Part shown: positions 1 to 32,965 of the stretch, piece by piece | Numbering within the stretch: the stretch's first letter is position 1 | How the letters are laid out: each line of letters starts with the position of its first letter | Source of the DNA: an uncultured Kiloniellaceae bacterium | Lineage (GTDB): Bacteria; Actinomycetota; Acidimicrobiia; Spongiisociales; UBA11373 | Direction of reading: 5' to 3' | Length of the DNA: 64,000 nt | Assembly (NCBI GenBank): GCA_964194935.1 | Contig: CAXMOL010000106.1 | Location: 2,058-66,057, forward strand | Made by a program: the position numbers and the translations under genes | Notes under the pieces: model-generated | The model's input: only the letters and a program-made list of their open reading frames with translations | The model's database searches: none | Told to the model about the DNA's origin: nothing

Positions 1-122
1 TACGCCGCGGTTGAGGTTCCTTGTCCGGTGACGACGAGGCGGCGTCCTGCCATCGCACTCTCTCGTTGGGGCGCAGGACGGTAGTCGGTGGACTGAGCTG
101 ATCCGACTGCTTCAATGACCCG

Positions 123-1103
123 ATGACGCAGTTCCTGCAAGGCGTGTCGGTGCCGGTACGTCCCGAGATTCCGACCGTGTTTGCTCGCGAGTGGTTGCGC
201 CTTGCTGCGCCGGGATCCGCTTGGGATGGGCGCCAGCGTGTCGAGATTGCTGCGGCGGCTCGGGCGTCTCGTCACGGCGCATTGGAGTCGGGCCCTTTCC
301 TGCCGGCTGTCGCCACTTCGGCCGCCGCGATGCTCGGGTCGACGCCGGGACGCGCTACTCGAATCTGGGCCGAGTCGGTCATTTCGACCATCGGCTCGAC
401 GGCATACGTGGAACTAGTCGGCGTGGTGGCCCGTGCATCTGCGGTCGATTCGTTCCATCGGTCGTTGGGGGCGACGGAGCCGACACTTCCTGAGCCCCAA
501 GCAGGTGAGCCGTCGGGAGAACAGGACCTCGCGGCCCGCCCCAGTGCAGCGTGGGTGCCGATGGTTGGTGGAGCATCGATCGTGCAGGCGCTTAGTGCGG
601 TGCCCTCCGAATCCGAGGCGCAGGAGGACATGCATGGGCAGCTCTACCTGACCTATGGACAAATGCAGGACCTGCAGTTTGTGCGTGGTCTTGCCAGGCC
701 GCAGATGGAGTTGGTGGCGGCGCGCACCTCGGCATTGAACGAGTGCTTCTACTGAGTCTTGGCGCACAGCCAGATGCTCCGTGCGAGCAGCGAAATCGCC
801 AACATACCTTTCGACCCAAGGTCCATCACGGACCCGTCGATCGATCCACTGCTCGCAGGCGGCCGGGCCCTTATACGGTTTACCGACGCAGCAGTCGGGT
901 CGGATGACCCCGCCGACGCCAGATCATTGCTGGCGGAGTTGCTGGGCTCTGCGGCGGTGGTGGACGCCGCCGGGGTAGTAGCCAATTTCGAAATGATGAA
1001 CCGCGTCGCCGAGGGGACCGGGATGCCGGTTGGTAAGGGGACTCTGGCTCGGACCGAGGAGTGGCGAATGCTCATCGGGCTCGATCGATACCGTCATGAC
1101 TGA
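123..1103 (+). CDS. AhpD/carboxymuconolactone-decarboxylase (CMD) family protein. The frame is continuous except for one in-frame TGA at 756-758, so this is a selenoprotein candidate or a pseudogene.
   Basis: ORFs 123..755 and 759..1103 are in the same frame and separated only by TGA. Across the junction the protein reads ...MELVAARTSALNECFY-[TGA]-VLAHSQMLRASSE, which matches the CMD/AhpD core motif ELV..R.S.iNGCxYCxxxH with TGA exactly at the second Cys. The true start may lie downstream of 123, because the N-terminal region is low-complexity Ala/Arg-rich. Confidence 0.5.
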
Positions 1104-8327: not shown

Positions 8328-8792
8328 TCAGTCGGCCGAGATGTTGCGCACCATGCGCTCTCCGTGACCTGATGCCTTTACGTTCCGCTTGGCGTGTTCG
8401 ACATCGCCTGAGGGCCCTATCACGAAGGTTGAGCGGATCAATCCCTCGTATTCCCTGCCGTAGTTCTTCTTGATCCCCCACGCGCCGTAAGAGGATGCAA
8501 CGGCGTGGTCTTCGTCGGATAGCAGGGGGAATGGAAGATCGTGTTTGGCGTGGAATTTGGCGAGCTTGGTGACCGGGTCGGGGCTGATGCCGGCGACCTT
8601 CCACCCTGCTTCGAGGAAGAGATCATGGCGGTCGCGCAAGTCACAGGCCTGGGTCGTGCATCCGGGGGTGAAGGCTTTCGGGTAGAAGTAGAGGAGCAGG
8701 TGCGATCCCGAGAAGTCGGTGAGGGCCGTCGGTTTGCCCTCGTGGTCGGAGAGGGTGAACTCTGGAGCCCGATCGCCGGCTTCGATGGTCAT
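8328..8792 (-). CDS. bcp: Peroxiredoxin Bcp (thiol peroxidase, PrxQ type)
   Basis: APEFTL...YFYPKAFTPGCTTQACDLRD is the PrxQ/Bcp active-site region. The start is taken at the internal ATG (MTIEAGD), since the upstream 31 residues of the tracked ORF are non-conserved. Confidence 0.85.
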   Translation of the reverse strand: MTIEAGDRAPEFTLSDHEGKPTALTDFSGSHLLLYFYPKAFTPGCTTQACDLRDRHDLFLEAGWKVAGISPDPVTKLAKFHAKHDLPFPLLSDEDHAVASSYGAWGIKKNYGREYEGLIRSTFVIGPSGDVEHAKRNVKASGHGERMVRNISAD

Positions 8793-8841
8793 GAGCTCTA
8801 CTCCTGTGTGGCGGACTCGGAGTCTGGTCGATCCGGCATTG

Positions 8842-9870
8842 CTATTCCGAAGCCGTGCGAACCCGTAGCTGGCCGCAGGCTGCATCGATTTCTGAGCCGC
8901 GCGTATTTCGAAGCGTCACGTTTGCGCCCTGGCGCCCGATCTCGTCGACGAACTGATGGATCCGGGCGTCGGGAGGCCGCTGTTGCGGTGCCAGTGGAGT
9001 CGGATTCATGGGGATGATGTTGATGTGTGCCCTGAGGTCACGAGCGATGGCGGCGAGGGCCCTTGCCTGGTCGGGCGTGTCGTTTATCCCGTCCATCAAC
9101 GTCCACTCCAATGTGACCCGTCGACCCTTGCCTTGGGTAAAGCGCCGCACTGCGGCGAGCAAATCATCGATCGGGTACCGAGCATTGAGCGGAACGAGCG
9201 ATTCTCGCAGTTCGTCGTTGGCGGCATGAAGGCTCAAGGCGAGGGTCACCGGCCAGGGCTCGTCTGCCAGTTGATTGATTCCGGGAACAACGCCGACCGT
9301 CGAGACGGTGATCGACCGTGCCGACATCCCCATCACCTCGACGAGGCGTCTTATGGCTTCTCGCACCCTCTTGTAGTTGGCGAGTGGTTCGCCCATCCCC
9401 ATGAACACCACGTTGGACACGCGTTGCGGTGAGCCTTCCATGGGGTGGTCGCGCAATGATGCCGTCGCATAGGCCACCTGCGCGGCGATTTCTCCCGCCT
9501 GGAGATGACGTTCGAAACCGAACTGACCGGTTGCGCAGAAGGTGCAGGCCATTGCACACCCTGCCTGGCTGCTGATGCACAGCGTTGTGCGACGTGGGTA
9601 CCCCATCAGGACCGCCTCTATGGCGGCTCCATCTGGAGCTCGGAACAACCACTTGCGGGTGCGGCCGCCGTCGGCCGATTGTTCGAGCTCGACCGAAAAG
9701 GGCCAGTGGGTTGGTCCGAGACGATCCCGGATCTGGGCCGGGAGATTGGTCATGTCGCTCGGTTCGAGCACCGGGTGTTCGTAGAGCCACTCTCGCACCT
9801 GATCGGTGCGGTAGCCGGGTTCATCTCCAAGCAGGTCACCCAGCTCCTCGGGAGCGATGAGGTAGGGCAA
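8842..9870 (-). CDS. rlmN: 23S rRNA (adenine2503-C2)/tRNA methyltransferase RlmN (radical SAM)
   Basis: 342 aa. The CISSQAGCAMACTFCATG radical-SAM CxxxCxxC cluster motif and the GMGEPLAN, IIPMNP signatures of RlmN/Cfr are present. Confidence 0.9.
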   Translation of the reverse strand: MPYLIAPEELGDLLGDEPGYRTDQVREWLYEHPVLEPSDMTNLPAQIRDRLGPTHWPFSVELEQSADGGRTRKWLFRAPDGAAIEAVLMGYPRRTTLCISSQAGCAMACTFCATGQFGFERHLQAGEIAAQVAYATASLRDHPMEGSPQRVSNVVFMGMGEPLANYKRVREAIRRLVEVMGMSARSITVSTVGVVPGINQLADEPWPVTLALSLHAANDELRESLVPLNARYPIDDLLAAVRRFTQGKGRRVTLEWTLMDGINDTPDQARALAAIARDLRAHINIIPMNPTPLAPQQRPPDARIHQFVDEIGRQGANVTLRNTRGSEIDAACGQLRVRTASE

Positions 9871-9873
9871 GGA

Positions 9874-10233
9874 TCAGTCAGCAGTCAGGTCTGCGGCTTG
9901 TCGAATCCAGTCGGCGGCCTTCTCATTGGCGACCTCGGCCGTTGACGCGACCTCGGCCGCGGATGCCGAGCCGAGAGCCGAGAACGTCGTTATGCCTGAC
10001 TGCTCCAGGCGCGCCCGGTAGACGGGTCCGATGCCCTTAACTTGCGAGAGGTCGTCGTCGGTGGTCTGCAGAGCAGTTGGGGGACCGGGAGCAACCCGAA
10101 AGGCCGGAGCCTCGGCGGGGGTGACCGGAACGGTTTCGGGGCCTAGTAGTCGGTCCTTTACCAGCCAGATAACGGCAGCGATACCGGCTCCGACTCCGAT
10201 GGCGTATCCACCCAATTTGGTTATGCGGCGCAT
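9874..10233 (-). CDS. Small membrane-anchored protein with a helix-hairpin-helix motif
   Basis: 119 aa. N-terminal TM GYAIGVGAGIAAVIWLV and a C-terminal LSQVKGIGPVYRARLEQSGITTFSAL HhH-like motif. It sits 3 nt downstream of rlmN on the same strand. Confidence 0.5.
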   Translation of the reverse strand: MRRITKLGGYAIGVGAGIAAVIWLVKDRLLGPETVPVTPAEAPAFRVAPGPPTALQTTDDDLSQVKGIGPVYRARLEQSGITTFSALGSASAAEVASTAEVANEKAADWIRQAADLTAD

Positions 10234-10270: not shown

Positions 10271-11863
10271 TCATTCGCCGGCGGCGGTGGCTGTACTCAC
10301 ACGTGGGTCGGCCGCGGCGGTCCTAACCCCATCAGCGTCGATGGCTATCACTGAAACGGGGCCCCAACCGGGGGTGTTGGCCGGCCCCGGCAGGATCGTA
10401 TGACCTAGCGCGCCCAGGCCGGTGATGACGTGTTCCGGCATCCCGGATTCGACCTGAACAGCAGGCCCTTCGTCGGTGCCCTCGATACTCCACCTTGGGA
10501 GTGCCTGGGCTTCGATCGGGTCGAGTTCGGCGATCAGCATGGCGGCCACCATCTGTGCGAGGTATTGCGGTTGTTGGTCACCCCCGCGAGTCCCAAGGAT
10601 GAGCGCAGGTTCGTCGCCTCTGGTCCACAGTGTCGGCGCCAAGGTGTGTAGTGGTCGCTTGCCGGGCCCTGCTTCATTGGGGTGTCCTGCGGTCACCGAG
10701 AAACCTGCGGCGCGGTTGTGGAGAAATACCCCGGTCGAGCCGGCGGAGATCCGGCTGCCGATGCCGAAGTAGTTGGACTGGATGCATGAGACCGCCATGC
10801 CGTCGGCGTCGATTGCGCAGAAAAAGGCCGTGCCGGCTGGGCCTGGAGTCGGTTCTGGCCAGTCGGCGACTGCGTTGGGAGCGATAGCCTGGAGACGCTG
10901 ATCCAGCCGTTCGGAAGCTAGATATTCAGAGAGTTCCCATGGAAGGTGATCCGGATCTGCGACCACGTCGTTTCGTTCCCAGGCGAAGGCTCGATAGGCC
11001 TCTATCACCGCGTGATGGAAAGCGGGATCAGTCGCATCGGCTGGTGGGCCGAGTCGTTCCAGCACCCAGGCGGCAGCGAGCGTGATGTACCCCTGGCTGT
11101 TCGGCGGGATGGTCCAGCCGGTGAGGCCGAACACATCGATACTCAGTGGTTCGACCCAATCAACGTCATTGGCGGCGAGGTCCTCGGTGGTGAGCACGCC
11201 CTCCGTGGCCTTGGCGACCGCTGCGGCGATGCTGCTCTCATAAAACCCCGCTCGCCCGTCTGTGGCGATGGTTTCCAACGTTGCCGCTAGGTCTCGTCGT
11301 CGGAGAGTTGCGCCAGCTCTGGGGGGTGTGCCGTCGGGGTACAGGGCTTCCGCCGACGGTTGACCAACGAGGGAGTCCGCCAACCGTTCGAGCGTTTCGG
11401 CGAACTCAACCGATACTTCGAAGCCCTCTTCACCCAATGCGATCGCATCCGCCAGAACTGCCCTGAAGTCGAGCCGTCCGTGTCGATCCTGTAGTGCCGC
11501 CCATCCGTCGACGCATCCCGGTACCGAGATTGTGGACGTTCCGTAGGTGGGCATTCGAGTATGTCCTGCCTCCCGTAGCGCCGCTGCGCTGAGACCCGAT
11601 CCACCCCTGCCGCTCGCATTGAGCACGTCGGGTCGATCCATCCCGGGTTGGTGGACGATGGCAAAGAGGTCCCCGCCGATTCCGCATGTCGATGGGAGCA
11701 CCACTCCGAGGACTGCGTTGGCCGCAATTACTGCATCGGCGGCCGAACCGCCCGCGTCCATTGCTCGCAGCGCGGCGGCGGTTGCTTCATGGTGGGGGGT
11801 CACGGCAACTGCGCCGGTACCGGAGTAGCTGGAGATCTTGGGCGTCAAGGCGTGAGGCTCCAT
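10271..11863 (-). CDS. ggt: Gamma-glutamyltranspeptidase (Ntn-hydrolase)
   Basis: 530 aa. The N-terminal domain reads ...SGGSAADAVIAANAVLGVVLPSTCGIGGDLFAIV. The catalytic Thr region is TAFFCAIDADGMAVSCIQSNY and the oxyanion region is GTRGGDQQPQ, as in the GGT family. Confidence 0.85.
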   Translation of the reverse strand: MEPHALTPKISSYSGTGAVAVTPHHEATAAALRAMDAGGSAADAVIAANAVLGVVLPSTCGIGGDLFAIVHQPGMDRPDVLNASGRGGSGLSAAALREAGHTRMPTYGTSTISVPGCVDGWAALQDRHGRLDFRAVLADAIALGEEGFEVSVEFAETLERLADSLVGQPSAEALYPDGTPPRAGATLRRRDLAATLETIATDGRAGFYESSIAAAVAKATEGVLTTEDLAANDVDWVEPLSIDVFGLTGWTIPPNSQGYITLAAAWVLERLGPPADATDPAFHHAVIEAYRAFAWERNDVVADPDHLPWELSEYLASERLDQRLQAIAPNAVADWPEPTPGPAGTAFFCAIDADGMAVSCIQSNYFGIGSRISAGSTGVFLHNRAAGFSVTAGHPNEAGPGKRPLHTLAPTLWTRGDEPALILGTRGGDQQPQYLAQMVAAMLIAELDPIEAQALPRWSIEGTDEGPAVQVESGMPEHVITGLGALGHTILPGPANTPGWGPVSVIAIDADGVRTAAADPRVSTATAAGE

Positions 11864-13009: not shown

Positions 13010-13040
13010 GTGACTGACCCGGGCGGCCCGCTACCTGCTT

Positions 13041-14336
13041 ATGAACTCAAAACAGATCGACCGTAGAACCGCAATTCTTGCCGCCGTATCGGCTGGGGCG
13101 GGTGCGGTTGTAGTCGTTGTGCTCTTCGTTCTTCAAAGCGACCCTCACCCTCTCTGGTTGTGGGGGACCTTTGCCGTCGCTTTTGTAATCCTGGAATTCT
13201 GGTCGGTCGAGGTAAACGACCGCCTCTTTATCTCGTCCTCGATCATGGTTGCGTTCAGCGGCATGGTTATTTTCGATCGGGACAGCGCAGTGCTGGCCGT
13301 CACCCTCATGGCTGCCGTCGCGGTACTTCACCCCGAGGACCTCCGTCTGCGGAGATGGCGCCAGCCTGCCTACAACTTTGGCCAGTTGGTGCTGTCCACG
13401 GCCATCGGTGCGCTGGTTCTATACCCCTTCTTGCCCCAGAGCACTCTGCTCATCTCCGACGTTCCGGTGCTGGTCGGCGGGGCCGCGCTGGCGTCCCTTG
13501 TCTACAACTGGGTCAACTTTCGTCTGGTCGCCCTGTACGTGAAAGTGGCCTACCCGGATCGTTCTCTCCGGCCTTGGTCCCGGATGTTGGCCAATCATCT
13601 GGTTCACGCCGTGCTGGGGGCCTACGGGGCCTTGATCGGAGCCGCCTATCTGCTGGTCGGCCCTGCGGCACTGCCGATGGTCGTCGGCACTTTCCTGATC
13701 GGACACTCAGGTTTTGCCGTCTATTCCCGGATGCGGCAGGCCCACGAGGACACGGTGAGCGGATTCGTAAAGGCGGTCGAGGCACTTGACCCGTATACCA
13801 AGGGGCACACCGAACGCGTTGCCCAGTTCTGTCGAATGGCCGGAGAACGTCTTGGGCTCGATCCGGATCAGCTCGAAGTGCTGCGATGGGCCGCGCTGAT
13901 TCACGACGTGGGAAAACTCGCCGCTCCGCCGGATCTGATCAGCAAGGAAGGCCCGCTCGGGGATGATGAGAAAGCCAGGCTTGAGCGAAGCGTGCGAGTC
14001 GTCGAGGAGTTGTTGGGCCAGGTTGACTTCCTTGCGGCTGCGGTCGCTGCTATCTCGAGAAGTGAGGTCCCCGAGATCCCTCGTCCGATCATTGCCCGGA
14101 TATTGGGTGCGGCGGACGATTTCGACTTGATGACCAGCACCCGGTCGTATCGATCGGCTCGATCCCAGTCGGCTGCGTTCGAACAGCTCCGCGCAGATGA
14201 GAGGCGACACGGTGTCGACGTCGTGACAGGCCTCATCGAGACCGTTGCGAGTGGCGAAGTCGTGTACGGACCTCCGGACGAAGAGACCTTCGCCGAGGTC
14301 GAGCGTCTGGTGCAAGAGAGGTCTCGTCGTGCGTAG
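13041..14336 (+). CDS. Multi-TM membrane protein with a C-terminal HD-superfamily phosphohydrolase domain (degenerate HD-GYP / PgpH-like). Candidate cyclic-dinucleotide phosphodiesterase.
   Basis: About 7 predicted TM segments, then HTERVAQF...AALIHDVGKLAAPPDLISKEGPLGDDEKARLERS (HD-GYP-like H..HD.GK..P..IL.KPG.L...E pattern) and ADDFDLMTSTRSYRSA (DxxDAMxSxRPYR motif). The canonical HHExxDGxGYP segment is absent. Confidence 0.75.
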   Translation: MNSKQIDRRTAILAAVSAGAGAVVVVVLFVLQSDPHPLWLWGTFAVAFVILEFWSVEVNDRLFISSSIMVAFSGMVIFDRDSAVLAVTLMAAVAVLHPEDLRLRRWRQPAYNFGQLVLSTAIGALVLYPFLPQSTLLISDVPVLVGGAALASLVYNWVNFRLVALYVKVAYPDRSLRPWSRMLANHLVHAVLGAYGALIGAAYLLVGPAALPMVVGTFLIGHSGFAVYSRMRQAHEDTVSGFVKAVEALDPYTKGHTERVAQFCRMAGERLGLDPDQLEVLRWAALIHDVGKLAAPPDLISKEGPLGDDEKARLERSVRVVEELLGQVDFLAAAVAAISRSEVPEIPRPIIARILGAADDFDLMTSTRSYRSARSQSAAFEQLRADERRHGVDVVTGLIETVASGEVVYGPPDEETFAEVERLVQERSRRA

Positions 14337-15519
14337 TCGCGTGATTTCGGTGGTCCTGGTTGTCGTGCCCTTGACTGTCGGGGGAGCGACGGCTGTCGCG
14401 TGGTGGCCGGGGATCGAATTCCCTGCTCTGGTCGTGACCTATTTGGCGGCGTATGTGGTGACGACCCCGACTGCGCCGGATCGAAGGGTGTCGCTCTCGA
14501 TGGGTGTTGCCGGGGCAATTGCTCTAATGAGCGGCGGATCGCTTGTGGTGGTGCTCGGTCCGGCCGCGATCGCCCTTCCTCTTGGCCGACTGATCGTGCA
14601 CGTCCGCCACGGGCCCCGAGTAGCCCGCGACATGTTTCCGGCTGAGCCAATCGGCGTGCTGGTGTTTGCTTTGGGGTTCGCTGGAGGCCTCTTGACCGTG
14701 TCCTCCACCAGTCCCGCTCATCCGGGAGTTCTGGCCGTCTTTGCGCTTGCTGCCATCCTTGGGTTCGGCGCGACCGTGTTTGCGAGGTCCCTGTTCTCCG
14801 AGCAACGACGCGTGGTGGCGCGTCGCCTAATAGCGTTGCGGACGCTCGAGGACTGGCCCGCCTATACGATCGTGTACTCGTCTGTCGCCTTGTTCGCCGT
14901 CACGGCCGAGCCAATGGGATGGTGGGCAGTACCGCTCGCCGGGCTCCCATATCTTTTCTCCTATGTGTCGCTGCACCGACTCCAGGGCACAAGGCGCACC
15001 TACGACCAGACCATTCGAGCCCTTGGGGCTATCCCGGAGGCGAGCGGTCAAGTGGTGAGCGGGCATTCAGCACGAACCGCCGAACTTGCCGTGGCGGCAG
15101 GCGCCGAGATTGGGTTGGGTGCCTCTGAGCTGGGACGGCTCGAGTACGCGGCGCTACTGCATGACATCGGTCGAATCGCTCTTGCCAACCCGACTGTTGG
15201 TAGCGACTACTCGTTCAGCGACGTGGCAGGTTGGAGCGCGGCGATCATCGGTGAAGCGAAGTACCTCGAGAAGGTTGCTGCGATAGTTGCCCGCCAGCAC
15301 GCTCCGTATCGAAGAGAGGGCCAGGTTCGGGATCAAGACGTGACACGGTCGTCGCAACTGATTCGGATCGCAGCGCGTTACGACAGCGATGTTGCCGAGG
15401 GTGCGGCGCCTATGGAGGCAATGGAGGTGTTGCATCAGGGGGCGGCTTATGACTACGACCCCGAGTTGGTGATGGCTCTGCGACGGGTACTGGAGCGGCG
15501 CGGAGCGTTCGCCGCCTAG
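14329..15519 (+). CDS. Second, paralogous multi-TM HD-domain membrane phosphohydrolase (degenerate HD-GYP-like)
   Basis: N-terminal TM region, then HSARTAELAVAAGAEIGL...LEYAALLHDIGRIALANP (HD motif) and ...ARQHAPYRREG. The likely GTG start at 14329/14341 overlaps the TAG stop (14334-36) of the upstream paralogue, so the 14245 start of the tracked ORF is probably too far upstream. Confidence 0.7.
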   Translation: MRSRVISVVLVVVPLTVGGATAVAWWPGIEFPALVVTYLAAYVVTTPTAPDRRVSLSMGVAGAIALMSGGSLVVVLGPAAIALPLGRLIVHVRHGPRVARDMFPAEPIGVLVFALGFAGGLLTVSSTSPAHPGVLAVFALAAILGFGATVFARSLFSEQRRVVARRLIALRTLEDWPAYTIVYSSVALFAVTAEPMGWWAVPLAGLPYLFSYVSLHRLQGTRRTYDQTIRALGAIPEASGQVVSGHSARTAELAVAAGAEIGLGASELGRLEYAALLHDIGRIALANPTVGSDYSFSDVAGWSAAIIGEAKYLEKVAAIVARQHAPYRREGQVRDQDVTRSSQLIRIAARYDSDVAEGAAPMEAMEVLHQGAAYDYDPELVMALRRVLERRGAFAA

Positions 15520-20447: not shown

Positions 20448-21605
20448 TCAGGTCAGAGAATCCCAGTCGATCGGCCCCGGGGGAAGCTTGCTGTCCATTG
20501 CCGGCATGGGGTATTTGAGACCGGACCCGCAATTGAACAAGACCGCTCGCTCCTCTTGATCTATCAAGCCCGATTGGACCGCCGCGGTCATCGCGGCGTG
20601 GGTGGCCGCACCTTCGGGAGACAACAGCAGACCTTGTTCACGCGCTACAGACTGTTGTGAATCGAGGATCGATTCATCGTCGACGGCGATCGCGAACCCA
20701 CCGCTTTCTCGCAAAGCGGACAGGATCAAGAAGTCACCTATGGCAGCCGGGACCCGGATCCCGCTGGCGATGGTCGAAGCGTCCTCCCAGCGTTCGGCGT
20801 GAGTGGCTCCTGCATCAAACGCCCGAACGATCGGGGCACACCCGGTCGACTGCACCGCCACCATGCGCGGCATCGGCCCATCGAGCCAGCCGATCTCGCG
20901 CAGCTCCTGGAATGCTTTCCACATGCCTATCAGACCGGTGCCACCTCCGGTCGGATAGAGAATCACATCCGGCAACTCCCATCCGAGTTGCTCGGCTAGC
21001 TCGAGCCCCATCGTCTTTTTACCCTCGATCCGGTAGGGCTCCTTCAGCGTGGAGACGTCGAACCAGCCCATCGGGTCCACACCTGCGGCAACGATCTTGC
21101 CGCAGTCGTCGATGAGACCGTCGACCCGCCACACCCGTCCGCCGTGGAGTGCGATCTCGCGCACATTTGTCTCGGGAGTGTCGGCCGGACAGAAGATGAA
21201 TGTCTCGATTCCGGCCCGCGCCCCGTAGGCCGCCAGGGCGGCTCCGGCGTTGCCGTTGGTCGGCATCGCCAGCCTTGTCAGCCCCAATTCGAGGGCCATT
21301 GAGACGGCGACGGCGAGACCGCGGGCCTTGAACGAACCCGTCGGGAGTCGGCTCTCGTCCTTTACGAGCACCGTTGTCGCAGCCTGGTCGCGGAGTCGTA
21401 TCAGTGGAGTCACCGGCTCGCCGAGCGACACGATGTTCGTGCGGTCCTGCATCGGCAGGAGTTCTCGCAGTCGCCACATGTCGTGTGGCCTCGTCGCCAG
21501 GTCGTCTCGGGTGAGGGTTTGGCGCGCCGCTTCGAGGTCGTATCGGACCAGCAGCGGTTTGCCGGTCTCCGAGAGGCCGTGCGGCTGGTTGGCCGGATAC
21601 CGCAT
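20448..21605 (-). CDS. Threonine-synthase-like PLP-dependent enzyme (fold type II; ThrC/cysteate-synthase family)
   Basis: ...VKDESRLPTGSFKARGLAVAVS... (PLP-lysine motif SFKxRG) and ...YPTGGGTGLIGMWKAF... The start is taken at ATG 21605 (MRYPANQ). The 440 nt upstream in the tracked ORF is Arg-rich junk that overlaps the neighbouring gene. Confidence 0.75.
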   Translation of the reverse strand: MRYPANQPHGLSETGKPLLVRYDLEAARQTLTRDDLATRPHDMWRLRELLPMQDRTNIVSLGEPVTPLIRLRDQAATTVLVKDESRLPTGSFKARGLAVAVSMALELGLTRLAMPTNGNAGAALAAYGARAGIETFIFCPADTPETNVREIALHGGRVWRVDGLIDDCGKIVAAGVDPMGWFDVSTLKEPYRIEGKKTMGLELAEQLGWELPDVILYPTGGGTGLIGMWKAFQELREIGWLDGPMPRMVAVQSTGCAPIVRAFDAGATHAERWEDASTIASGIRVPAAIGDFLILSALRESGGFAIAVDDESILDSQQSVAREQGLLLSPEGAATHAAMTAAVQSGLIDQEERAVLFNCGSGLKYPMPAMDSKLPPGPIDWDSLT

Positions 21606-22687: not shown

Positions 22688-25353
22688 TGATCAGCGGCCA
22701 TGCGTCGCAGCACCATGTGGAGAATGCCGCCGTGGCGGAGGTACTCGACTTCCACCGGGGTGTCGACTCTGGCCACCGTGGCGAATTCGATCACTTCACC
22801 GTCGGCTCTCGTGGCTCGGACATTGATCTCTTGTCGAGGCGTCAGGTCATCGTCGACGGCGATGTCGTAGGACTCGGTTCCATCGATGCCGTATGTGGCG
22901 GCATTGGTTCCGGGAAGGAAGGTGAGGGGGAGAACCCCCATCATCACCAGGTTGGAGCGGTGGATCCGCTCGAATGAGTCGACGATGACCGCTCTCACTC
23001 CGAGCAGATAGGCGCCCTTGGCGGCCCAGTCGCGGCTCGAACCCATTCCGTAGTCCTTGCCGCCGATGACCAGCAGCGGAATACCGGCATCCCGATAGGA
23101 AAGCGATGCCTCGTACACCGTCTTGACGTTGTCGTCCGTGAAATCGGTCGTAAACCCGCCTTCGGTTCCTGGAGCCAACTCGTTGCGGATTCGTATGTTG
23201 GCAAAGGTGCCTCTGGTCATGACCAAGTCGTTGCCACGCCGCGATCCGTAGGAGTTGAACATGGATCGCTCGATCTGGCGATCGGCGAGGAACTGGCCGG
23301 CCGGAGTGTCTGGTCCTATGGCCCCGGCCGGGCTGATGTGGTCGGTGGTCACGGAATCACCCAGCTTGAGCAAGGCTCGGGCCCCTGCGATCGGGGCAAT
23401 CGGTGCCGGAACCTCGCCGAGATCGGCGAAGAACGGCGGTTCCTGGATGTAGGTGCTGGTTTCTTCCCAAGCAAAGAGGTCACCACCGGAGACTTCGATT
23501 GCTTTCCACTCGTCGGCCCCTTCGAACACGGCTCCGTATTGCCGGCTGAACTGATCGCTGGACACTGTGGCGGCGACGATTGCAGAGATCTCCTCCTGGG
23601 TCGGCCAGATATCCCGCAGTAGTACATCGTTGCCGTTGGAGTCCACTCCTATCGGATCGGTGGTGAGATCGATGTCCACGGTCCCGGCGATCGCATAGGC
23701 GACCACCAGAGGAGGCGAAGCAAGGTAGTTGGCCCTTACGTCTGGGCTGATTCGCCCTTCGAAGTTCCGGTTTCCCGACAGCACTGAGGCAACAACGACA
23801 TTGCCTTCGTGCACGGCGGCGCTGATCTCGGCCGGCAGTGGTCCAGAGTTGCCGATGCACGTCGTGCACCCGTAGCCGACAAGAAAGAAGCCGAGTGCTT
23901 CGAGGTCGGCGGTCAATCCGGCCGCTCCCAGGTATTCGGTCACGACCTTGGACCCGGGGGCAAACGAGGTCTTTACCCATGGTTTGCGGTTTAGTCCCTT
24001 CTCGCGGGCTTTGCGGGCGATAAGTCCTGCACCGACCATGACGTCCGGGTTCGACGTGTTGGTGCAGGACGTGATTGCTGCGATCACCACGTCACCAGTG
24101 GAGAGATCGAAATCGCCGTCAGCGCTGGAGACGGCGATCGGGTCGTCGTTGCGGTTGGCAAAGGTGGTGTCGAGGCCTGCTCTCCAGGTCTGTTGCATTG
24201 CTCCGAGATCGATCCGATCCTGCGGTCGCTTGGGACCGGCAAGCGATGGCTCGACCGTCCCCATGTCCAGCTCGACAATGCTCGAATAGGTGATGTCGTG
24301 TGACTCGTCTCGCCACAAACCCTGTAAGCGGTAGTACTGCTCCACGGTCTCGACGAGTGCTTCGTCGCGTCCGGTCAGGCGCAGGTACTTGGTGGTCTGC
24401 TCGTCTACCGGGAAGTAGCCGACGGTGGCTCCGTATTCCGGGGCCATGTTGGCAATGGTCGCCCGGTTGGCCAGTGGCATGTCGGCCAATCCCGCCCCGA
24501 AGAACTCGACGAATTTTCCGACGACGCCGTGGGCGCGCAGCATCTGGGTGACCCGCAGTACCAGGTCGGTGGCGGTCGTCCCCTCCGGAAGACTCCCGGT
24601 GAGACGGAATCCGACGACCTCGGGAACCAGCATGAAGATTGGCTGGCCGACCATCGCGGCCTCAGCTTCGATGCCGCCGACACCCCAGCCGAGTACTCCA
24701 AGACCATTGATCATCGTGGTGTGCGAGTCGGTGCCCACCAGTGAATCCGGGTAGAGGCGGCCATCTTCGTCCCACACCACTTTTGCCAGATATTCGAGAT
24801 TTACTTGATGGACGATGCCTGTGGATGGGGGCACCACTCGGAAGTTGGAGAAGGCCTGTTGTCCCCACTTGAGGAATTCGTACCGTTCTTGGTTTCGTTC
24901 GAACTCCCGGTCGCTGTTGATCTTTAGAGCGAGCGGTGAATTGAAGGCATCGACCTGCACCGAGTGGTCGATAACGAGGTCGGATTGCACCTGCGGGTTT
25001 ACGAGTTGGGCAGCGGACTCGTCTCCTGTCATACGGACGATCGCGGATCGCATCGCGGCGAGATCCACGACGGCCGGCACACCTGTGAAGTCTTGGAGTA
25101 CGACCCGCCCAGGACGGAAGGCAATCTCGGTCTCCTCGACTTTGGACGCGTCATAGCCGGCCAGAGCTTGTACGTCTTCATCCGTGATTGTGTGACCGTC
25201 GTGGTTGCGCAGCACGGCCTCGAGCAGCACCTTTATGGAGTAGGGGAGCGCGTTGATATCGGCGATGGTCGACAACGCACCGATGCGGAAGATCTCCCGT
25301 TGCCCGAGGGGCGTTTCGATCGTCTCCCGGGCGCTGAATGGGTCCTGCGTCAT
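22684..25353 (-). CDS. acnA: Aconitate hydratase A
   Basis: 889 aa with full-length aconitase A similarity, including the Cys ligand regions ...ITSCTNTSNP... and ...CTTCIGNSGP... and the C-terminal swivel domain. Confidence 0.95.
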   Translation of the reverse strand: MTQDPFSARETIETPLGQREIFRIGALSTIADINALPYSIKVLLEAVLRNHDGHTITDEDVQALAGYDASKVEETEIAFRPGRVVLQDFTGVPAVVDLAAMRSAIVRMTGDESAAQLVNPQVQSDLVIDHSVQVDAFNSPLALKINSDREFERNQERYEFLKWGQQAFSNFRVVPPSTGIVHQVNLEYLAKVVWDEDGRLYPDSLVGTDSHTTMINGLGVLGWGVGGIEAEAAMVGQPIFMLVPEVVGFRLTGSLPEGTTATDLVLRVTQMLRAHGVVGKFVEFFGAGLADMPLANRATIANMAPEYGATVGYFPVDEQTTKYLRLTGRDEALVETVEQYYRLQGLWRDESHDITYSSIVELDMGTVEPSLAGPKRPQDRIDLGAMQQTWRAGLDTTFANRNDDPIAVSSADGDFDLSTGDVVIAAITSCTNTSNPDVMVGAGLIARKAREKGLNRKPWVKTSFAPGSKVVTEYLGAAGLTADLEALGFFLVGYGCTTCIGNSGPLPAEISAAVHEGNVVVASVLSGNRNFEGRISPDVRANYLASPPLVVAYAIAGTVDIDLTTDPIGVDSNGNDVLLRDIWPTQEEISAIVAATVSSDQFSRQYGAVFEGADEWKAIEVSGGDLFAWEETSTYIQEPPFFADLGEVPAPIAPIAGARALLKLGDSVTTDHISPAGAIGPDTPAGQFLADRQIERSMFNSYGSRRGNDLVMTRGTFANIRIRNELAPGTEGGFTTDFTDDNVKTVYEASLSYRDAGIPLLVIGGKDYGMGSSRDWAAKGAYLLGVRAVIVDSFERIHRSNLVMMGVLPLTFLPGTNAATYGIDGTESYDIAVDDDLTPRQEINVRATRADGEVIEFATVARVDTPVEVEYLRHGGILHMVLRRMAADH

Positions 25354-25450
25354 GGGGTGGTCCTTCGTTGGCTCACCGCCGAGTCTACGAACACTTGGGT
25401 CTGAGGCGACATGGCACGCTGCGATCGGGTTGCGCGATTACGCTCAGTCC

Positions 25451-25996
25451 ATGGCAGTAATCATTGGCGTCGTTGCTGGTGTCCTTCTGTTGGGTGCCAT
25501 TGCGATCTATAACCGCCTGATCCGGCTTCGGAATCGAACAGACAACGCATGGTCCCAGGTCGATGTACAGCTGAAGAGGCGCTACGACCTGATCCCGAAT
25601 CTCATCGAAACGGTGAAGGGCTACGCCTCACACGAGCGCGAAACGTTTGAAGCCGTGGTCAGAGCCCGGGCTGCGGCTCAAGAGGCAGGCACGGTGGAGC
25701 AACAGGCCCAGGCGGAGGACTTCCTTACCGGGGCGCTGCGCAAGTTGTTCGCCTTGGCCGAGGACTATCCGGAGTTGCGGGCCAGCGAGAACTTCCGCAG
25801 CTTGCAGGCCGACCTGTCGGAGACAGAGAACAAGATCTCGGTCGCCCGACAGATCTACAACGACACGACCTTGTCCTACAACAACGCAGTGCAGACGGTC
25901 CCGTCGAATCTTGTCGCTGGGATGTTCGGGTTCGTAGCACGCGAGTATTTCGAGGTCGAGAACGATGCCCGGTCCGCTCCGGAGGTGAGCTTCTGA
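25451..25996 (+). CDS. LemA family protein
   Basis: N-terminal TM (MAVIIGVVAGVLLLGAIAIYN) followed by the LemA domain (...WSQVDVQLKRRYDLIPNLIETVKGYASHERETFEAV...). The start is chosen at ATG 25451 rather than the 25253 start of the tracked ORF. Confidence 0.85.
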   Translation: MAVIIGVVAGVLLLGAIAIYNRLIRLRNRTDNAWSQVDVQLKRRYDLIPNLIETVKGYASHERETFEAVVRARAAAQEAGTVEQQAQAEDFLTGALRKLFALAEDYPELRASENFRSLQADLSETENKISVARQIYNDTTLSYNNAVQTVPSNLVAGMFGFVAREYFEVENDARSAPEVSF

Positions 25997-30577: not shown

Positions 30578-30682
30578 CCCAGTGTGTTGACCCGGCGGCC
30601 AGTTTTGTCGCAATCGCCGTTCCCCGGTGGGCCCGGTCGGAAATACGGAACCAGCTAGGTTTGCCGCAGCAGGAGGGGAACT

Positions 30683-32965
30683 ATGACTCGGCGTCTCACG
30701 CTGACCAATTGGGGTGCCTACGAAGTCGAGACCGACGGTCACGACATCACGGCCGTGCATCCATTCGCCAAGGACCCTGATCCATCACCGATCGGGCAGT
30801 CGATGAAGGCTGTACGCAAGAGTCGGGTAGAACGTCCGGCGATCCGCGAGTCCTGGTATCGAAATGGTCCTGGATCCAACCCGGAACGTCGCGGTCAAGA
30901 GCCTTTTGTAGAGGTCGAGTGGGATGTCGCCTTGGACATGCTCGCTGCGGAGCTGGAAAGGGTGCGTTCCGAGTACGGGAATCAGGCGATCTTCGGCGGC
31001 AGCTACGGCTGGGCCAGTGCCGGCCGATTCCACCATGCCCTGAGCCAGATCCACCGCTTTCTGAACTCGATCGGTGGCTATACCTACTCGGTCGATGACT
31101 ACTCGATCGCCGCCGGCCACGTGATAGTCCCTCATGTCTTTGGGTTCTCGTTGAACGACATATTGGACGAGCAACCTCATTTCAGAGAGATCGCAGAGAA
31201 CACTGAGTTGATGGTGGCCTTCGGAGGTCTGCCGATAAAGAACAGCCAGGTGAGTTACGGAGGCCAAGGTCGTCACATGTTTGCTGGCTACCTCGAAAAC
31301 TGTCGCGATCGTGGAGTCAAGTTCGTAAACGTCTCTCCCTTGCGCGAGGACGTGATGGATGCTGTCGAGGCCGAGTGGATACCGGTAAGGCCGAGCACGG
31401 ATACCGCCGTCATGCTCGGGATCGCACACAGTCTCCTTCTCGCCGGAGATCAGGACGAGGAGTTTCTCAGCACCTATTGCATCGGGTGGGATCGCCTCCG
31501 TGCCTATATCTTGGGAGAGTCGGATGGCACGCCCAAGACGGCCGAATGGGCCGGCGAGATCTCAGGCGTCGATCCGGAGCGGATCATGTCGCTTGCTTCC
31601 GATATGGCGCGGGCGCGGACCCTCATCACCGTTAGCTGGTCGGTGCAACGAATCGACCATGGGGAACAGACGTATTGGATGGCCGCGGCGCTGGCCGCGA
31701 TGCTCGGTCAGATTGGCCTCCCCGGAGGTGGGATCGGCTACGGCTATGGAGCGGTCGGGTTGAATGGGCACGCGGTCGGCTATCACGATCTCCCGAGGCT
31801 CGCTCAGGGCAAGAACGATGTCTCCGACTTCATCCCGGTGGCGAGGATTTCAGACCTCCTGCTTCATGGCGGTGAGGAGTTCGACTACAACGGCATGCGC
31901 CTTACCTACCCGGAGACGCGACTGGTCTATTGGGCCGGAGGCAACCCGTTCCACCATCATCAGGATCTCAACCGACTGGCCGAGGCCTGGCAGACCCCGG
32001 ACACCATCGTCTGTCACGAGCCTTTCTGGAATGCCCTTGCTCGGAATTCCGACATTGTGCTCCCCGCAACGACCCCGCTGGAGCGGGACGATGTAGGGGG
32101 TAGCGGAAATGATGACTGGATCTTCTGGATGGAGAAGGTGATCGAACCGGTAGAACAGGCACGGGACGACTTCGACATATTCGCCGACCTGGCAGAGCGT
32201 CTTGGTGCGGGAGAGAGATTTACGGAGGGACGAACGTCTGCCGAGTGGATCGAGCATCTCTACGACAGATTCCACTCCCGTCATCCTGACTACCCCTCGT
32301 TGCAGGAGTTGCAGGAGACAGGTCACTTCCAGATTCCCGAGGAGTTGGTCCCGCCGCTTCCATCGCAGCTCGTTGCGTTCAGGAATGATCCGGTCGGCTC
32401 CGCACTAAAGACACCCTCAGGTCGGATCGAGTTGTACTCCGAGACCATCGAAGGGTTCGGCTATGAGGACTGTCCGCCTCATCCGTCATGGCTTGAACCG
32501 TATGAATGGCTCGGCAGTGTGGGCCGGTATCCCCTCCATCTGATTTCCAACCAGCCCAAGACCCGTCTCCACTCCCAGTGGGACCATGGCGAGACGAGTC
32601 TGAATGGCAAGGTCGATGGCAGAGAACAGATCGGTCTAACCCCGAAGGATGCGAAAGCCCGAGATCTCGGGGCGGGGGATCTAGTTCGGGTGTTCAATGA
32701 TCGAGGTGCTTGTCTGGCTTCGGTCACCATTCGGGATGACCTGATCGAAGGCGTGGTCCAGCTCCCGACCGGGGCGTGGTGGGATCCAGTTGAGCCGGGA
32801 GGCTTGTGCCGAGCGGGGAACCCCAATGTCCTCACCCGTGACGTAGGAACCTCGTCGTTGGCCCAAGGCCCCACCGCACACACGTGCTTGGTCGAGGTCG
32901 AGGCTTTCACGGGAGAGGCTCCTGCCGTACGTGCTCACGACCACCCGCAGCTTCTCGCCGACTAG
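30683..32965 (+). CDS. Molybdopterin (bis-MGD) oxidoreductase of the DMSO-reductase family, cytoplasmic BisC-like (biotin/methionine sulfoxide reductase-like)
   Basis: 760 aa, no twin-arginine signal, no N-terminal Fe-S Cys cluster. Conserved molybdopterin-binding segments (GGSYGWASAGRFHHA..., ...VVCHEPFWNALARNSDIVLPATTPLER..., C-terminal ...PNVLT...) as in BisC/TorZ. Confidence 0.8.
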   Translation: MTRRLTLTNWGAYEVETDGHDITAVHPFAKDPDPSPIGQSMKAVRKSRVERPAIRESWYRNGPGSNPERRGQEPFVEVEWDVALDMLAAELERVRSEYGNQAIFGGSYGWASAGRFHHALSQIHRFLNSIGGYTYSVDDYSIAAGHVIVPHVFGFSLNDILDEQPHFREIAENTELMVAFGGLPIKNSQVSYGGQGRHMFAGYLENCRDRGVKFVNVSPLREDVMDAVEAEWIPVRPSTDTAVMLGIAHSLLLAGDQDEEFLSTYCIGWDRLRAYILGESDGTPKTAEWAGEISGVDPERIMSLASDMARARTLITVSWSVQRIDHGEQTYWMAAALAAMLGQIGLPGGGIGYGYGAVGLNGHAVGYHDLPRLAQGKNDVSDFIPVARISDLLLHGGEEFDYNGMRLTYPETRLVYWAGGNPFHHHQDLNRLAEAWQTPDTIVCHEPFWNALARNSDIVLPATTPLERDDVGGSGNDDWIFWMEKVIEPVEQARDDFDIFADLAERLGAGERFTEGRTSAEWIEHLYDRFHSRHPDYPSLQELQETGHFQIPEELVPPLPSQLVAFRNDPVGSALKTPSGRIELYSETIEGFGYEDCPPHPSWLEPYEWLGSVGRYPLHLISNQPKTRLHSQWDHGETSLNGKVDGREQIGLTPKDAKARDLGAGDLVRVFNDRGACLASVTIRDDLIEGVVQLPTGAWWDPVEPGGLCRAGNPNVLTRDVGTSSLAQGPTAHTCLVEVEAFTGEAPAVRAHDHPQLLAD

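Follow-up and report, generated by a model that had tools for sequence, protein, structure and literature searches.

The gene at positions 123-1103 of the 64,000-nucleotide stretch of DNA analyzed here (hereafter the window) is best read, with a probability that we place near 0.93, as one monocistronic gene that encodes an NF041238-family selenoprotein of 326 residues and whose in-frame UGA is read as selenocysteine (Sec) with the help of a hairpin a short distance downstream (Table 1). The original prediction, a Sec-for-Cys selenoprotein of the AhpD/CMD type with a CxxU center, is upheld by the match to NF041238, by the conserved TGA, by the existence of Cys homologues and by the selection and the frozen hairpin found downstream of the TGA. 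The selenoprotein family to which the gene belongs has been catalogued since 2005 and is curated in NCBIfam, and the gene therefore carries little weight as a discovery.

The gene consists of one reading frame that is broken by a single in-frame TGA, and its read-through product comprises 326 codons. The two same-frame ORFs parted by one TGA that had been described previously were recovered, but the position of the TGA had to be corrected: the end coordinates of the ORF list count the stop codon, and the TGA therefore occupies 753-755 and not 756-758. The latter positions are GTC (Val), and the ORF listed at 759..1103 begins merely at the first TTG past the stop. The protein context reported around the TGA matched exactly upon retranslation, giving ...MELVAARTSALNECFY-[TGA]-VLAHSQMLRASSE across the junction or, as an alternative excerpt, ...QMELVAARTSALNECFY-[UGA]-VLAHSQMLRASSE..., and the CFYU motif reads NECFY-TGA-VLAH (738-767), with Val as the residue after the Sec position. 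Both termini of the product coincide with those of its homologues, which start with MTQFL or MTPFL and end in ...DRYRHD followed by the stop. A Logan contig from run ERR13301386, which constitutes an independent assembly, carries an identical gene with the same TGA. Since the upstream gene, seen on the Logan contig, and the downstream malic-enzyme gene both lie on the opposite strand, the selenoprotein gene is monocistronic.

Table 1. Coordinates of the AhpD-related gene and of its elements within the window.
Feature	Position	Strand	Remarks
Complete selenoprotein gene, AhpD-related (NF041238)	123..1103	+	ATG 123, Sec-UGA 753-755, stop TGA 1101-1103
In-frame UGA, putative selenocysteine U211	753..755	+	TGA in 92/92 copies; Cys in rare full-length homologues and PDB relatives
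Active-site signature E196-x11-C208-x2-U211-x3-H215	708..767	+	E, C and H invariant in homologue alignment A1
Active-site codons	E196 708-710, C208 744-746, U211 753-755, H215 765-767	+	
N-terminal helical lobe, approximately residues 14-114	162..464	+	Second AhpD-like lobe by structure; without Pfam match
C-terminal AhpD/CMD-type lobe carrying the CxxU center, approximately residues 153-300	579..1022	+	
SECIS-like hairpin	775..789	+	Stem U775-C779 with G785-A789 (UGCUC/GAGCA), pentaloop C780-C784 (CGUGC)

Profile scans were performed with the 326-residue product in which a Cys had been put in for the stop. The NCBIfam equivalog model NF041238 (AhpD_rel_CFYUT, 'alkylhydroperoxidase-related (seleno)protein') was matched with an E-value of 1.5e-77 and 261.3 bits against a cutoff of 175, and the alignment, which places residues 12-324 on model positions 1-356 of 357, is full-length. 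Besides this end-to-end match, the gene shares with the family the C-F-Y-U motif, the length class and a UGA followed by a SECIS-like hairpin; it differs from the family name in having CFYUV, with Val after Sec, where the model has Thr, both residues being found in the family. The broader models were matched at or under their thresholds, with PF02627 (CMD, Pfam) barely passing (23.1 vs 23.0) and TIGR00778 (25.7 vs 27.8) and TIGR01926 (40.8 vs 81.8) falling below. Alignment to PF02627 and TIGR00778 had been suggested as a way to verify the Cys/Sec column; these two models give borderline scores, and Cys-containing homologues align a Cys in the column.

A 2026 review (PMC13188914) treats the NF041238 family as identical to "hypothetical protein 1" of the Sargasso Sea selenoproteome. 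The 2005 description of the latter (Zhang, Fomenko & Gladyshev; PMC1088965) drew on four reads and noted a CXXU motif along with a SECIS prediction. AhpD-like CxxU selenoproteins rank with the most abundant selenoprotein families of the sea (PMC2398784). The AhpD-like 1 (COG2128/TIGR01926) and AhpD-like 2 (PF02627) proteins of the Sargasso and GOS surveys (PMC1088965, PMC2398784) belong to the same superfamily as the window gene and have in common with it the CxxU with Sec in second place and a marine/metagenomic distribution; they are, however, single-domain proteins of about 180 aa, whereas the window family adds an N-terminal lobe of its own of about 115-150 residues.

The in-frame TGA stands in the same column in all 92 homologous copies collected (12 GTDB-genome loci and 79 metagenome loci), at identities of 34-85%. 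The patterns used to scan for these loci, S[AY][LIF]NECFY and [VIA][AG][NT]F[EAQ]MMN, left out the TGA codon itself, and the 92/92 count is therefore not an artefact of selection. Relatives with a sense codon at this place, which had been named as a sign of a pseudogene or sequencing error, did not appear among the loci sampled. When 1.84 billion cluster representatives were searched exhaustively with HMMER, 675 relatives were retrieved. Among the best 150 of them, the sequence stops precisely at C-x-[YFWH] in 135 and reads on with Cys in 10; Gly is present in two and Ser in one, and the other two are different cases. Forms truncated at the UGA, taken as Sec, thus outnumber Cys forms by about 13:1 among these best 150 representatives and, given that Cys read-through forms stand beside those ending at the UGA, Sec/Cys pairs exist in the family, with Sec predominating. 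Cys occupies the UGA position in P0068, in P0186 and in nine further representatives with CxxC. The solved structures of AhpD-family proteins likewise align a Cys on the UGA (NKCFYCLVAH in 2pfx, NRCVYCAVSH in 6k40), and the spacing E-x11-C-x2-C-x3-H is shared by the window protein and the PDB relatives to which it was aligned. That the TGA falls on the second Cys of this signature is far beyond chance, and the placement of the TGA at the second redox Cys, as originally proposed, stands on the 92 copies, the Cys homologues and the two structures.

Three full-length members of the family (P0270, P0335 and P0327) have Gly (CAHG, CVYG) or Ser (CAYS) at the second redox position and may be variants without redox activity or with an altered mechanism. 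The relatives of the window gene come mostly from Acidimicrobiia MAGs; homologues at 55-66% identity were also seen in MAGs labelled Acidobacteria, Gammaproteobacteria and Gemmatimonadales (L002, L007 and P0076), labels that reflect either mis-binning or horizontal gene transfer.

Downstream of the UGA, a short hairpin is conserved within the coding sequence. It lies 21-23 nt after the UGA; in the window its loop starts 24 nt after the UGA, and its 5 bp amount to -5.7 kcal/mol; the hairpin of relatives is longer (7-8 bp, -10 to -12 kcal/mol). Comparing 86 distinct sequences, numbered with the U of UGA as 1, positions C25, U26, C27, G29, G33, A34 and G35 are invariant, G24 is present in 85/86, position 30 is always U or G and position 36 always C or U. 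The conserved hairpin thus pairs G24-C27 with G33-Y36 around an N-G-K-N-N loop, and the RNAalifold consensus pairs 23-27 with 33-37 (+23..+37). Over the flanks 21-27/33-39, 84.7% of cells are paired, as against 24.8-47.8% with the partner slid, and 0/500 shuffles attain the observed pairing or covariation score. The pair 22:38 covaries, being A-U in 12 sequences and C-G in 14. The codons at the hairpin site also depart from the usage of the same genes: Leu is CUC in 86/86 sequences against a background of 36%, Ala is GCG in 60/60 against 30%, Ser is AGY in 86/86 against 31% and Arg is CGU in 58/76 against 12%, while the Arg codon CGC, with a background of 33%, is never used there. Replacement of the dipeptide Arg-Ala by Ser-Trp turns the loop from CGUGC into AGUUG and leaves the stem unaltered. 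Considering that the four core pairs are invariant, the structural support comes from frozen synonymous sites together with one covarying flank pair and not from classical covariation. The GCUC-NGKNN-GAGY hairpin is kept across MAGs labelled as several phyla, and its conservation and frozen synonymous sites support its assignment as a SECIS-like element. In one 740-kb contig (L069, Ga0209543_1000001), two tandem paralogous copies about 1.1 kb apart (10670-10729 and 11779-11838) each possess their own TGA and their own GCUC-NGKNN-GAGC hairpin.

The original prediction of a SECIS-like stem-loop 3' of the UGA was correct as to the presence of a hairpin, but not as to which stem is conserved. The stem proposed at first, CGCAC 763-767 with GUGCG 781-785 (+11..15 with +29..33), forms in the window sequence and is not conserved: it pairs in 78.6% of cells versus 78.4% in shuffles (234/500), and its pair 12:32 holds in just 31% of sequences. 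Both structures compete for G29-G33. Folding of the single sequence over 750-830 or 753-800 was indistinguishable from shuffles (z of -0.8 and -0.6, within an overall range of -0.5 to -0.8) and is therefore uninformative by itself. No SECIS model of Rfam was matched at gathering or E-value thresholds, the sole match being a chance one to Ms_IGR-2 (E = 6).

Bacterial SECIS elements typically show G-U in the apical loop, as in E. coli fdhF and in the bSECISearch literature, and the bSECISearch model places the start of the loop 16-37 nt after the UGA, a range that includes the 24 nt of the window. The hairpin resembles the fdhF-type SECIS in its location in the coding sequence just 3' of the UGA and in having G (G-U/G) at loop positions 2-3; it differs in its far shorter stem, with 4 invariant bp and 1-4 variable pairs, and in having no bulged U. 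Its loop also lies some 6 nt further from the UGA than that of fdhF.

With respect to the decoding machinery, ARAGORN found no tRNA-Sec in the 64 kb window or in 94 related loci, the only tRNA of the window being a tRNA-Arg, and no SelA, SelB or SelD was found among 40 window ORFs scanned with NCBIfam, nor did the flanks of the 94 loci yield any of these genes. The caveat attached from the outset, that selA, selB, selD and tRNA-Sec are absent from the window, was therefore well placed and, because the window holds none of them, Sec decoding is something that we infer for the source genome. In Actinomarina, another Acidimicrobiia lineage, selC, selA, selD and a divergent selB are reported for 84/84 complete genomes in a 2026 preprint (bioRxiv 10.64898/2026.04.03.716425), which provides class-level support only for the source genome.

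The lack of observed Sec machinery would also suit a UGA recoded in some way other than as Sec, either by a near-cognate or suppressor tRNA (Trp, Cys or Gly) or through an alternative code, and the full-length homologues with Gly (two) and Ser (one) at the UGA position point the same way. We regard such recoding as very unlikely, considering that the aligned residue is overwhelmingly Cys, the hallmark of Sec, that the conserved hairpin with its G-U loop lies at bSECIS distance, that RF1 is encoded nearby and that UGA ends many well-aligned window genes. UGA is otherwise an ordinary stop in the window: it ends the selenoprotein gene itself at the same place as in the homologues, and it terminates AcnA, whose profile alignment reaches the last residues. 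Two further TGAs at which one frame shows coding signal both before and after the stop, 9874-9876 (-) and 20448-20450 (-), are plain gene boundaries, between an HhH protein and RlmN in the first case and between ThrC and MetF in the second.

Public databases present the family in pieces. A search of 5.8 billion proteins gave matches that nearly all cover about 60% of the query, with lengths of about 200-250 aa and ends at ...NECFY, and the C-terminal part used as query matched only fragments of 87-119 aa. Several of the C-terminal fragments adjoin N-terminal ones in the same MAGs (HKN74_09720/09725, HKN80_00605/00610 and ACR2NL_06965/06970); gene callers systematically split the selenoprotein gene into two adjacent 'hypothetical protein' CDS, of about 210 aa and about 110 aa. 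Taken at face value, these consistent calls, together with an in-frame ATG (Met218) located 18 nt past the UGA, would describe two separate genes, the first coding for 210 aa up to the UGA and the second, with an internal start, for 109-119 aa, as in HKN74_09720/09725. Such an arrangement is extremely improbable: the break would fall inside the CxxC-H active-site helix of one AhpD domain, natural unbroken Cys forms exist, the frame and the zero spacing are preserved in 92/92 copies, and the curated NF041238 model covers both halves. In practical terms, the conserved UGA and the GCUC-NGKNN-GAGY hairpin offer a simple and specific signature with which the split MAG records could be repaired.

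To compare constraint on the two sides of the UGA, the 30 codons before it were set, in 66 genes, against 26 codons that surround the NFEMMNR block some 80 codons further on. The third position accounts for 52% of the differences downstream and 50% upstream, and 43% of differing codon pairs are synonymous downstream as compared with 45% upstream, values that indicate purifying selection undiminished beyond the TGA. A pseudogene or a sequencing or assembly error, in which the TGA would be a recent nonsense mutation or a miscalled TGC or TGT, has in its favor that one base change turns either codon into TGA and that the window holds no Sec machinery, but is effectively refuted by the presence of the TGA in all 92 independent homologues, the most distant at 34% identity, and in the independent assembly of the identical gene, and by purifying selection that is equal downstream and upstream of it.

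Returning to the full-length selenoprotein, its fold was approached through an AlphaFold2 model of the natural Cys homologue P0068, which is 39-41% identical to the window protein. The model reached a mean pLDDT of 77.9 and a pTM of 0.79 from a 61-row alignment that is deep only for the first two-thirds and shallow for the C-terminal third. It displays the all-helical AhpD fold with a Glu...CxxC...His center, arranged in two lobes, and is closest to Sestrin-2. Judging from this model, the window protein is best described as two AhpD-type helical lobes with the redox center in the C-terminal one. Duplication of the lobes is unproven at the sequence level (hhalign E = 0.015, probability 3%), and the N-terminal lobe has no Pfam match. 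The resemblance of the window family to eukaryotic Sestrin-2 (human, PDB 5cuf) is architectural only, at 13% identity, and the PA26/Sestrin profile revealed no sequence-level homology to the Sestrin family. Sestrin-2 carries its redox Cys in the N-terminal lobe and has leucine-sensing/GATOR2 functions. An extra CxxC in the N-terminal lobe (GCEFCQRR, GCALCRLR, TCRLCEAR) was observed in a distant CFYUT clade (P0206, P0189, P0200, P0186 and L095:10001-10747). The window's Acidimicrobiia clade differs from it in being without this motif, the counterpart region reading ...AAARASRHG..., with the CxxC lost, and the sequences suggest that the N-lobe was formerly a second redox center.

In the mechanism that we propose, the UGA at 753-755 would be decoded as selenocysteine at codon 211, the hairpin at 775-789 would recruit SelB with Sec-tRNA(Sec), and the second UGA (1101-1103), without such a hairpin, would direct termination. 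E196...C208-F-Y-U211...H215 would then constitute the AhpD proton-relay/CxxC center with Sec in place of the second Cys. The Glu/His relay could activate the selenolate, which would attack an oxidized substrate; this might be a hydroperoxide, or else a sulfenic acid or a disulfide carried by a partner, for instance a peroxiredoxin. The adduct would be resolved by Cys208 to a selenenylsulfide, which a cellular reductant or thiol system would subsequently reduce. The protein is probably a thiol/selenol oxidoreductase. In comparison with Mycobacterium tuberculosis AhpD (1gu9) and the peroxidase-related proteins 2pfx, 6k40 and 2prr, it has Sec for Cys and an extra N-terminal lobe, and its gene has neither an ahpC neighbor nor a conserved operon partner.

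Biochemical work could reasonably start from the strong preference for Sec and from the two-lobed AhpD/Sestrin-like fold, and the source organism, an Acidimicrobiia-like bacterium, can be flagged as a likely selenium user. A more ambitious reading, which we consider doubtful, is that of a near-obligate selenoenzyme family built from two AhpD lobes in a Sestrin-like arrangement, with a minimal SECIS, GCUC-NGKNN-GAGY, of unusually invariant sequence. If it were true, such a bacterial counterpart of Sestrin-type peroxidase/sulfinyl-reductase chemistry, strictly needing selenium, would mean that Sec plays an enzymatic role of a new kind in Acidimicrobiia that are abundant in the sea and in sediments.

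The window is an ordinary chromosomal stretch with 61.6% GC. Its genes include malic enzyme, a Bcp/PrxQ peroxiredoxin, RlmN, ThrC, MetF, AcnA, a BisC/TorA-type molybdoenzyme, Ku, Kbl/Tdh, ArgRS, Rho, RF1, SHMT and ATP synthase. The gene neighborhood over 91 loci showed nothing in common beyond close relatives, with malic enzyme present in 9 loci. The Bcp/PrxQ-type thioredoxin-dependent thiol peroxidase (8331-8915, - strand; NF006960, 167.7 bits) is encoded 7.5 kb from the AhpD-related gene and is a possible redox partner of it, while not being a conserved neighbor across the family. The BisC/TorA-type molybdopterin S/N-oxide reductase (30659-32962, + strand) scores 909 bits with TIGR00509, just under the cutoff of 1017, and its gene is an uninterrupted ORF; it is therefore not a Sec-containing molybdoenzyme. 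Two neighboring ORFs of about 430-440 aa (13014-14333 and 14227-15516, both + strand), paralogous to each other, give weak matches (49 and 48 bits) to a NosR-family response-regulator/c-di-GMP phosphodiesterase model and seem to be tandem duplicates that encode a signalling protein. Finally, the C-terminal 100 residues of the product of 25244-25993 (+ strand) are weakly MamQ/LemA-like (90.7 bits vs a cutoff of 250), and this product is probably a LemA-family membrane protein.
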